Shown here piece after piece: positions 61,965 through 64,000 of a stretch of 64,000 nt of DNA. Location of the stretch: the NCBI GenBank assembly GCA_030650425.1, contig JAUSED010000010.1, forward strand, positions 10,104 to 74,103, written 5' to 3'. The notes beneath the pieces are model-generated. The model made no database searches and had not been told where the DNA came from. It worked only from the letters and a program-made list of their open reading frames with translations. The stretch is from Candidatus Omnitrophota bacterium (GTDB lineage Bacteria; Omnitrophota; Gorgyraeia; Gygaellales; Profunditerraquicolaceae). The translations under genes were made by a program, and so were the position numbers. The number at the start of each line of letters is the position of its first letter. Positions within the stretch are counted from its first letter, which is position 1.

Positions 61965-62474
61965 AAAATTTTTGTGCAACAAAAATTTTGGTACTTGGCG
62001 ATACCAAAAATCTTTTACCTAGGTTTGAGCCAAGTACCTCCATCACAAATAACCTCAACAACCACATAACCTCGTATGGTAAAAACTACTCTCAATAAAC
62101 CTTTGAGAATTGATTTTCCTCCACCTCCAGCTCTTTTGCAAGAAGGAGGCTCGGGATAATCTTCTTCGCTTTGCAGCGAAAAAAATTAAAGGCCAAGCCA
62201 ATCGGCTGATTAGTACGCATTAGCTCAAATCCTTACGGACCTTACACATTGCGCCTATCGAGGTCGTAGTCTACGACCAGCCTAATGGGGATACTTATTC
62301 TTGAGGGGGGCTTAGCACTTAGATGCTTTCAGCGCTTATCCCTTCCGAACATAGCTACCCGGCCTTTGCCCTTGGCAGGACAACCGGAACACCAGAGGTT
62401 CGTTTCTCTAGGTCCTCTCGTACTGAAGAGAACTCCTCTTCAAGTATCCTACGCCCACATCAGATAGAGACCGA

Positions 62475-63214
62475 CAATTTTTGTTACATTCGCAAAATTA
62501 TTGCGAAGGATCAATCATTTCTGCTGATCTCTGCATATCGCTATGCAGTTCGGACTGTATCATATCCGCCTGTCATGCGGATTCTGGCGTACAGTCTCTG
62601 AAGATTCCAAGTGAGAAATTATATCTTCCAGTTTTTGCTTGCGATATTTACCGCTAAAATTCATTGAATAAGCGATTGTTAATATCGTAATCAACCCATT
62701 CTTTTTTAAATGCCCTCCTTCTTTCATTAAACTAACGACTCGAGCAAATTTCTCAAAATCCTTTTGTTTGATTGAAATAAGAGGAGATTTTTTGAAGAAT
62801 GGTATGACTTTATTACGGAGATCATCGATATTTCGCACCACATAAACTGAAGTTTGATCCTTTAGATTTTGATAATCATTAGGTTTAATATACCCACAAC
62901 CTAATTTTTTCTTAATCACTTCAAGGACTTCAGTCCTGTCCTGGTGCTGTGAAACATGAAATTCCGGGATTACCTGAATCCCTAGTTTCACATTGCCGCT
63001 TTTTTGAATTGTTACTGAAAAGCAGCCTTCTCCATCAACAAAACCTGAGATATATGATGTTATCCCACCTGGCCTTTCCTGCTGATTGTCTGCACCCATA
63101 TATTTTCACTCCCGACGATATATTATCATATAGAGACTAAATCGTCAAGTAGTAATATGGGATTCTCAGAGTTTCCAGCAATTAGCCAGATTTAAAGACA
63201 GCAACGGTCATTTT
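62475..63214 (-). mobile_element. Group I-type intron in 23S at the I-CreI homing site (E. coli ~2593; GTGAGACAGT^TCGGTC)
   Basis: Exon sequence is contiguous with the E. coli 23S consensus once 62475-63214 is removed. Contains a LAGLIDADG ORF. Confidence 0.7.
62560..63099 (-). CDS. LAGLIDADG homing endonuclease (I-CreI-like), intron-encoded
   Basis: GFVDGEGCF motif. 179 aa. Confidence 0.8.
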   Translation of the reverse strand: MGADNQQERPGGITSYISGFVDGEGCFSVTIQKSGNVKLGIQVIPEFHVSQHQDRTEVLEVIKKKLGCGYIKPNDYQNLKDQTSVYVVRNIDDLRNKVIPFFKKSPLISIKQKDFEKFARVVSLMKEGGHLKKNGLITILTIAYSMNFSGKYRKQKLEDIISHLESSETVRQNPHDRRI

Positions 63215-63285
63215 ACTGTCTCACGACGTTCTGAACCCAGCTCGCGTACCCTTTTAACTGGCGAACAGCCAGACCCTTGGGACCT

Positions 63286-64000
63286 GCTTCAGCCCCAGGA
63301 TAGGATGAGCCGACATCGTACCTTTATCCATAATTACGTATGGTGTAGACTATATCTTTTCCCTACTGTCGGACTTTAGGCTTTCAGCCATATCCTTTAC
63401 TTTTTGATGTAGGGTTCGGCGTGTTATCTAGCTTCTTTTACAAAAGCTAAATCTCCTCTTTCGAGTCAGTCGTTACGGGGTCATAGTCAATTTTATAACG
63501 GAAACATGGCAACAGATGAGGCGCGACTATATTTCGAAATAGTCCTGCGCTTTCCGTTCGTATTCGAATTCTAAAGTATTGTTTATCGCGATTGAGACTG
63601 GACTTAATACCTAAATCTCGATCTAAAATATTCATCAATATCTTCTGGCTTACCAGATCAAACTGCTGAGTATTTAAATAAAATGTATTGCGACTCTTCG
63701 AACCGTCATCCATAAACCAAACAGAAAGCATCAAATTGGTTAGGATGAGATCGGTCGAAACTGCCTTTTTGCCGCTCGAATAATATTTTAAATAATATTC
63801 TGTAAAAAGCGGAAGGCTTTGAGTCGTAAAACGATAAGCAATACGATTGCCATTGCCATGGCGAGATTTTGGCGGAGTTTTGACAAACTCTTCGAAATTT
63901 TTCCACTTCCAATCAACATATTCTCGATATTGGAACGAGTGGTTAACCTCAAGAAGCGCGTTAGTTCTGGTGCCCTGCTTTCGCAATGCGCCATCACCAA
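63286..64000 (-). mobile_element. Second intron in 23S (near E. coli ~2500 region), continues beyond the window
   Basis: The exon resumes at ...TACGATGTCGGCTCATC (63271-63285). Upstream sequence does not match the 23S consensus and encodes a LAGLIDADG_2 ORF. 5' boundary not in window. Confidence 0.55.
63447..63986 (-). CDS. LAGLIDADG_2-family homing endonuclease, intron-encoded
   Basis: LMLSVWFMDDGS motif (WFMDDG signature of the LAGLIDADG_2 family). 179 aa. Confidence 0.7.
   Translation of the reverse strand: MRKQGTRTNALLEVNHSFQYREYVDWKWKNFEEFVKTPPKSRHGNGNRIAYRFTTQSLPLFTEYYLKYYSSGKKAVSTDLILTNLMLSVWFMDDGSKSRNTFYLNTQQFDLVSQKILMNILDRDLGIKSSLNRDKQYFRIRIRTESAGLFRNIVAPHLLPCFRYKIDYDPVTTDSKEEI

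Follow-up and report, generated by a model that had tools for sequence, protein, structure and literature searches.

The yeast mitochondrial omega intron, which carries the endonuclease I-SceI, is situated at position L2449 of the large subunit (LSU) ribosomal RNA (rRNA). Introns of the I-CreI type are designated L2593 by the convention that names the residue after which they are inserted, here U2593 (Haugen et al. 2007, PMC1995217), and bacterial 23S group I introns with LAGLIDADG open reading frames (ORFs) have been described from Thermotoga (L1931), Coxiella (L1917 and L1951) and Simkania (PMC1995217). LAGLIDADG_1-encoding insertions at 23S position 2604 were reported in the candidate phyla radiation (CPR) by Tsurumaki et al. 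2024, who called the site new for bacteria, and unreported outside their CPR set (PMC11270868). In the present study we examined a 64,000-nucleotide (nt) stretch of contig JAUSED010000010.1 from a Candidatus Omnitrophota bacterium, referred to throughout as the window. There is little doubt in our view that it contains the 3' end of an Omnitrophota rRNA operon whose 23S gene is interrupted, in the peptidyl-transferase region, by a pair of mobile group I introns, both with a gene for a LAGLIDADG enzyme. The introns, inserted after U2604 (intron 1) and U2500 (intron 2), are of a known kind, and the 2604 site has already been reported in CPR. They share with the Thermotoga, Coxiella and Simkania introns their group I class, their bacterial 23S location and their LAGLIDADG ORFs, but they occupy other sites and belong to families with a much wider distribution, the former amounting to one or two introns in lineages that have been cultured. 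Both window introns are predicted to self-splice, to encode active endonucleases with the target sites considered below and to be capable of homing.

The Rfam bacterial LSU model matches the minus strand of the window from 62199 to 63432 (232.7 bits, E = 1.9e-72), and the 23S gene is oriented accordingly on that strand, which corrects an earlier interpretation of this DNA made from the letters alone (the sequence-only reading). Along the minus strand, the 3' end of the 23S gene, itself interrupted twice, is followed by a spacer, a 5S rRNA gene and a hairpin with a U-run. Exon junctions were set by aligning the joined exons to the fetched E. coli rrl gene, and U2585 and A2602, which we take as landmark residues, agree with the E. 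coli numbering used. The middle exon extends from C2501 to U2604 (63318-63215) and the 3' exon begins with U2605 at 62474, placing the two insertion points 104 rRNA positions apart. This distance had been put at approximately 70 nt in the sequence-only reading, with the exon resuming at 63285; the true resumption is at 63318 (C2501), and the 'TA' of the motif 'TACGATG' on which the earlier placement relied represents the last two bases of the intron. Excision of 62475-63214, coordinates already proposed for the first intron and recovered identically by the E. coli alignment, joins ...GUGAGACAGU to UCGGUCUCUAUC..., and with both introns removed the exon-exon junctions, marked here by a slash, are GGCACCU/CGAUGUCGG and GAGACAGU/UCGGUCUC. 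A relative without intron 2 (L004, NCBI GCA_041308925.1) has the uninterrupted sequence GGCACCU/CGAUGUCGG and matches the window from 63318 exactly. The Rfam LSU match, the restored junctions and the Pfam domains of the encoded proteins thus bear out the earlier proposal that two introns, both with a LAGLIDADG reading frame, split the 23S gene. Its assignment of the first intron to the I-CreI site at ~2593 does not hold, as the insertion lies between U2604 and U2605, 11 nt downstream, and the I-CreI-named structure 3mx9 matches the intron 1 enzyme at only 40 bits. We take the 22-bp I-CreI recognition sequence to extend to ~2604, which probably explains why the motif was recognised. Overall, the observation made in that reading is partly confirmed and its interpretation partly supported.

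Comparative folding identifies intron 1 as a predicted canonical group I intron, based on a consensus fold and pair counts from 74 distinct homologous introns. Pairing of the exon sequence AGACAGU with GCUGUCU of the intron places a U.G pair at the 5' splice site, and this pair is kept in 73 of the 74 homologues (P1, the first paired region, is present in 73-74 of them), and GACCG of the window copy pairs with CGGUC of the 3' exon to form P10. Three pairs in P3 covary between UA and CG, with counts including CG 36 / UA 36 and UA 37 / CG 28, and compensatory changes are found in the extended P5, P6, P8, P9 and P9.1. All 3' junctions recovered from the best 80 genome loci place the insertion after GAGACAGT (L2604), and all of these introns end in G. 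In the proposed splicing pathway, the intron would adopt the standard group I fold, with the 5' exon held on the internal guide sequence by a helix ending in the U.G pair; an external guanosine would cut at this pair, the terminal G would then dock in P7, and the exons would be joined. Intron 1 resembles the CPR insertions at 2604 in rRNA position, in encoding a single-domain LAGLIDADG_1 protein and in its group-I-like RNA (PMC11270868), and differs in that its host is an omnitrophotan and that its family occurs also in several other non-CPR phyla. With Cr.LSU, the intron of I-CreI, and the cyanobacterial L2593 introns it shares the domain V helix region, the single-motif LAGLIDADG protein and an ORF that extends into the ribozyme core (PMC1995217). 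In contrast to the L2593 intron, which is inserted after U2593 and has P2 and P7.1/P7.2, intron 1 is inserted 11 nt further 3', lacks P2 and has an extended P5 and P9.1/P9.2.

The window ends within intron 2 (L2500), and its full length was reached through a homologue of the encoded enzyme (P0121, 200 amino acids, 100% identical to the intron 2 enzyme). The contig of this homologue, a Logan assembly of SRR13727527 (L205), contains the complete intron, overlaps the window by 712 nt without a mismatch and extends 229 nt beyond it. Extension of the contig, recommended in the sequence-only reading, was in this way achieved for the rest of intron 2; a second contig from SRR13727527, which carries the window's neighbouring gene (L002), stops in the 5S gene and gave no extension. 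On L205 the 5' exon ends in GGCACCU and P1 comprises 9 bp (GCACCU paired with GGGUGC, plus extensions), while P10 comprises 6 bp (ACAUUG paired with CGAUGU); because P1 and P10 are contiguous, the splice sites are fixed at U2500/C2501. We collected 85 homologous introns from genome and metagenome collections and derived a consensus from the 28 without an ORF, in which P2, P3, P6, P8 and P9 covary and P7.1/P7.2 lie between P7 and the 3' strand of P3, an arrangement we regard as typical of subgroup IA. The closing pair of P7, beside the bulged base, occurs in covarying A-U, G-C and U-A forms; its G-C neighbour never varies and, judging from Tetrahymena G264-C311, is presumably where G binds. All consensus helices map onto the window/L205 copy with canonical pairs. 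Intron 2 would accordingly be described as a group I ribozyme with P7.1/P7.2 whose P6 loop accommodates the ORF of an I-SceI-like enzyme, monomeric and with two motifs.

Several observations weigh against two intact group I introns. The window copies of introns 1 and 2 score only 25.9 and 19.1 bits, respectively, with the Rfam Intron_gpI model (cut-off 50), no more than the final 682 nt of intron 2 fall within the window, the remainder being taken from another assembly, apparently of the same sample, and intron 2 ends in ...GGAUAAAGGUA/CGAUG, with A as its last base in place of the G of the second splicing step. The long ORFs in P6 may account for the low scores of both window introns. An Intron_gpI search, suggested as a check in the sequence-only reading, thus fell short for the window copies and succeeded for ORF-less relatives, namely a 308-nt L2604 intron (L133, 57.4 bits) and an L2500 intron (L173, 51.9 bits); scores in the L2500 family range from 27 to 52 bits, with the ORF-less L198 and L150 at 47.5 and 40.7 bits.

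Sub-threshold scores would also be expected if the segments were expansion segments or RNase III-type intervening sequences with chance ORFs, and many CPR rRNA insertions indeed fit neither intron class (PMC11270868). We regard this explanation as very improbable, and it appears to have been largely refuted already by covariation and intron-less alleles. Both segments have a P1 with U.G at the junction, a covarying P3/P7 pseudoknot and conserved R and S elements, ORF-less relatives of each pass the Rfam cut-off, and relatives without intron 2 (L004) or without intron 1 (L206) restore the conserved rRNA sequence precisely. The last of these also helps to answer the objection, anticipated in the earlier reading, that the insertions might be expansion segments conserved among relatives.

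Group I introns use a terminal G in the second splicing step, and the terminal A of intron 2 was examined in this light. The A is confirmed in L205, and two introns from other samples, whose enzyme is 88% identical to that of intron 2 (L206 and L207), end in ...AAAUGUA/. Among the 85 L2500 members, 17 (~20%) end in A, with tails AUA, GUA or AAA, and none in C or U. Since L205, L206, L207 and these 17 members share the A, it is not an error. Copies ending in A are found in both P7 subtypes, with core pairing intact in all and endonuclease ORFs intact in many, and in several of them the 9 nt next to the junction contain no G. They adjoin near-identical copies ending in G (L170 versus L182 and L194, the window copy versus L189), and this interleaving argues that the terminal base has switched between G and A repeatedly. 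Other splice sites for intron 2 were considered and rejected, as use of the G two bases upstream or of a shifted 5' site would add two bases or alter the universally conserved C2499/U2500. An adenosine-specific pocket, with A-U replacing the P7 G-C pair, was ruled out by the invariance of that pair.

The terminal A may block exon ligation, leaving a non-functional 23S copy or a mature 23S rRNA split at 2500/2501 like some bacterial intervening sequences. Such impaired splicing would fit the A at 63319 combined with an unchanged G-binding pair in P7 and the lack of a compensating change: no alignment column in the core separates A- from G-ending copies (best frequency difference 0.6), and P10 is not significantly longer in the former (means 5.0 versus 4.2 bp, p = 0.058, uncorrected for relatedness). 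We nevertheless consider it rather unlikely. The A ending has been kept in the diverged L206 and L207, and its occurrence in 17 of 85 members of two P7 subtypes, with intact cores and many intact ORFs, is not a pattern of decay. We know of no precedent for an rRNA break inside the peptidyl-transferase centre. Furthermore, exons are perfectly ligated in vivo by the hexacoral mitochondrial ND5-717 introns, although these have no terminal G (PMC6545197). Accurate splicing with a terminal A, by a sizeable sub-population of L2500 introns that includes intron 2 and retains the canonical G-specific pocket, has in our estimation an even chance of being correct. If so, the second step of a ribozyme located in what is probably the only 23S gene of its host would involve either less strict purine recognition or a helper factor, and A-ending copies that do splice would constitute a natural bacterial test bed for the strictness of that step towards the terminal G. 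Like ND5-717 (PMC6545197), intron 2 is a natural group I intron without a terminal G in an essential gene, but it belongs to a mobile, endonuclease-bearing family of bacterial rRNA introns in which G- and A-ending copies are interleaved.

The GFVDGEGCF protein of intron 1 (HE1) was correctly recognised as a LAGLIDADG protein in the sequence-only reading; it matches LAGLIDADG_1 above the curated Pfam cut-off, and the acidic residues of its motif GFVDGEG are intact. An exact look-up of the HE1 sequence returned no record, and a total of 1135 homologues were found, the best being 93% identical. From its start in the 3' strand of P5 the ORF crosses the 3' strand of P4, both strands of P6, P7, the 3' strand of P3 and P8 before stopping in the joining segment J8/7. 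Because its ends overlap ribozyme core helices, little or no variation is seen among homologues at the N-terminal residues D4, Q6, Q7 and R9 or in the C-terminal LESSET. ORFs extending into the core were already known from cyanobacterial rRNA introns (PMC1995217). The best-scoring solved structures are I-OnuI-type domains (120-150 bits), followed by the single-motif 5gkk (105.9) and 3e54 (65.8). The 60 matches listed include a single I-CreI-named structure, 3mx9, at 40.4 bits, as against 106-150 bits for other LAGLIDADG_1 proteins, suggesting that HE1 is only distantly related to I-CreI. HE1 most likely acts as a homodimer, and would be expected to leave 4-nt 3' overhangs near GT/TC. A dimeric mode fits the near-palindromic intron-less target GAGACAGT/TCGGTCTC, which, as judged by eye, is identical to its own reverse complement at 12 of 16 positions, with the insertion point as centre. 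Activity and dimerisation have been demonstrated for I-ShaI, a related CPR enzyme from a different 23S site (PMC11270868). Homing would proceed by HE1 cutting the intron-less allele, followed by repair that copies intron 1 in.

The enzyme of intron 2 (HE2) is the WFMDDG protein previously described as LAGLIDADG_2, which is upheld (E = 1e-30), and its ORF runs off the window, as the earlier reading had noted for the intron. Its motifs are LLGDGAL and WFMDDGS, with acidic residues intact, and it too lies above the curated Pfam cut-off. The GTG start codon would be at 64049, outside the window, in the region of the P4 3' strand and P6, and the end of the ORF lies in P7.1/P7.2. There are 766 homologues, and the only solved relatives are 6x1j (E = 6.7e-11) and I-SceI (1e-7). 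HE2 shares with I-SceI its Pfam family and its monomeric two-motif form, and both enzymes reside in group I introns of domain V. HE2 and intron 2 differ from I-SceI and the omega intron in their site (U2500), bacterial host, shorter protein (200 amino acids) and low identity (E ~1e-7). Enzymes of the HE1 and HE2 types are candidates for rare-cutting nucleases directed at conserved sites in 23S rDNA.

Identities to Omnitrophota metagenome-assembled genomes (MAGs; L006 and L005) are 97.2% for the 3' exon (L006), 98.3% for the 5S gene and 91-93% for intron 1, and on these grounds the host is assigned to Candidatus Omnitrophota and not to CPR. An assembly chimera, in which foreign intron-bearing rRNA fragments were joined at conserved rRNA sequence, might be suspected, as assemblies of the lineage break here (L002 in the 5S gene, L003 and L006 in or next to intron 2). 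We find this hardly credible, given that the independent Logan contig L205 matches 712 nt of intron 2 and middle exon without a mismatch and that L003, L005 and L006 share the arrangement of L2604 intron, 3' exon and 5S gene. Identity to these three is 91-97% in both intron and exons, indicating that the intron and the host rRNA diverge together.

Relatives of HE1 are encoded in at least 580 stretches of species-representative genomes. Hosts include Omnitrophota, MAGs labelled Planctomycetales or Planctomycetia, Actinomycetota (Solirubrobacterales and Gaiellales), Armatimonadota, Patescibacteria, Gammaproteobacteria, Acidobacteriota and Dormibacterota, among others, with the closest relatives among the matches listed in MAGs labelled Omnitrophota and Planctomycetales/Planctomycetia. 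CPR genomes are represented by Peregrinibacteria, Magasanikbacteria, Berkelbacteria, Kerfeldbacteria and Saccharibacteria. Both intron families are widespread in uncultured bacteria, far beyond the few textbook bacterial cases. These findings can be set beside a 2026 survey that found group I introns in rRNA genes of 15 bacterial phyla (PMC13011429) and a published survey in which 82% of CPR 23S genes contained them (PMC11270868). The earlier statement that rRNA introns are uncommon in bacteria is therefore adequate for cultured organisms but not for uncultured ones. A literature search linking Omnitrophota with rRNA introns found no paper. For annotation, long endonuclease-bearing introns of this type fragment assemblies and hide the rRNA of Omnitrophota and many other uncultured phyla from standard annotation and from primer-based surveys.

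Additional observations were made in related genomes. Public assemblies of the lineage (L002, L003 and L006) repeatedly break in the 5S gene (window ~61935) or in or next to intron 2, and it appears that the rRNA genes are harder to assemble and bin because of the introns. One Omnitrophota MAG contig (JAPLLY010000056.1, 48,654 bp; L007 and L018) has an L2604 intron with endonuclease and a 23S 3' end at both contig ends in inverted orientation, which reflects either an assembly artefact or the ends of two inverted rRNA operons. Another Omnitrophota relative (L011) has further group I matches above the Rfam cut-off at 1332-1647, 4499-4819 and 5418-5777, one located between the 16S 3' end and the spacer tRNAs and one starting right after C2501, between 2501 and 2604; these matches indicate introns at several more sites in the Omnitrophota lineage. 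The A-ending L2500 intron of L206 (NCBI GCA_964529405.1, CAZGWE010000024.1, 629-4151) accompanies at least three endonuclease ORFs inside the 23S gene, one of them a LAGLIDADG_1 ORF between 2501 and 2604, with no L2604 intron.

Table 1 Features of the rRNA operon end on the minus strand of the window
Feature	Position	Strand	Evidence and remarks
Terminator-like hairpin and U-run	61797..61850	-	Directly 3' of 5S; fold of 61795-61850 = -31.7 kcal/mol, z = -10.8 versus shuffles
5S rRNA	61849..61965	-	Rfam RF00001, 95 bits, full-length
23S-5S spacer, ~224 nt	61966..62189	-	From 23S 3' end (...GGCUUGGCCUU, aligned to E. coli 3' end) to 5S
23S 3' exon, E. coli 2605 to 3' end	62190..62474	-	Alignment to E. 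coli rrl and Rfam LSU
Intron 1 (L2604), predicted group I, 740 nt, after U2604	62475..63214	-	E. coli alignment, junction restoration; terminal G at 62475
Intron 1 P1	63221-63213 / 63204-63196	-	Consensus fold
Intron 1 P3	63190-63185 / 62588-62583	-	Consensus fold
Intron 1 P4	63180-63175 / 63085-63080	-	Consensus fold
Intron 1 P6, loop holds ORF body	63079-63067 / 62612-62602	-	Consensus fold
Intron 1 P7	62601-62590 / 62559-62550	-	Consensus fold; usual bulged architecture
Intron 1 P8	62582-62564	-	Consensus fold
Intron 1 P9; P9.1; P9.2	62548-62531; 62529-62509; 62507-62489	-	Consensus fold
HE1, 179 amino acids, single-motif LAGLIDADG_1 (SGFVDGEGCF)	62560..63099	-	Pfam PF00961, 88.7 bits, E = 5.4e-25
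23S middle exon, E. coli 2501-2604, 104 nt	63215..63318	-	E. coli alignment; L004 aligns from exactly 63318
Intron 2 (L2500), 3' 682 nt of predicted 881-nt group I intron, after U2500	63319..64000	-	5' end would be 64199, outside window; terminal A at 63319
Intron 2 P6 3' strand	63482-63477	-	Mapped from ORF-less homologues
Intron 2 P7	63473-63467 / 63352-63347	-	Mapped from ORF-less homologues
Intron 2 P7.1 and P7.2	Between ~63466 and 63421	-	Mapped from ORF-less homologues
Intron 2 P3 3' strand	63420-63416	-	Mapped from ORF-less homologues
Intron 2 P8	63415-63408 / 63367-63359	-	Mapped from ORF-less homologues
Intron 2 P9	63343-63338 / 63333-63328	-	Mapped from ORF-less homologues
HE2, C-terminal 183 of 200 amino acids, two-motif LAGLIDADG_2 (I-SceI-like)	63447..64000	-	Pfam PF03161, 107.1 bits, E = 1.2e-30

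The 23S-5S spacer, noted previously as long at ~225 nt, has essentially that length, which is unremarkable given spacers of ~130 nt (L005) and 184 nt (L006) in close relatives. A tRNA search of the window gave none. The hairpin after the 5S gene plausibly marks the predicted end of the rRNA operon; it was not picked up by a pattern scan for terminators and was identified by direct folding. Weak Rfam matches to MIR1120 and sau-19 at 61797-61854 correspond to this same hairpin and were rejected as genes.

Elsewhere in the window, two giant ORFs are present on the minus strand, one of 1787 amino acids (44259-49622), for which a Pfam scan gave no match, and one of 2416 amino acids (1489-8739) with a transglutaminase-like core at 27.8 bits (Pfam cut-off 23) and sub-cut-off matches to DUF3990 (31.3 bits) and ART-PolyVal (26.1 bits). 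Two nhaA-I riboswitch matches on the minus strand, each of 47 bits and above the Rfam cut-off, are located directly upstream of an MscS-type mechanosensitive channel gene (riboswitch 26524-26579, gene 25431-26483) and upstream of an SPFH/Band_7 gene pair (riboswitch 29924-29970, genes 27910-29861).

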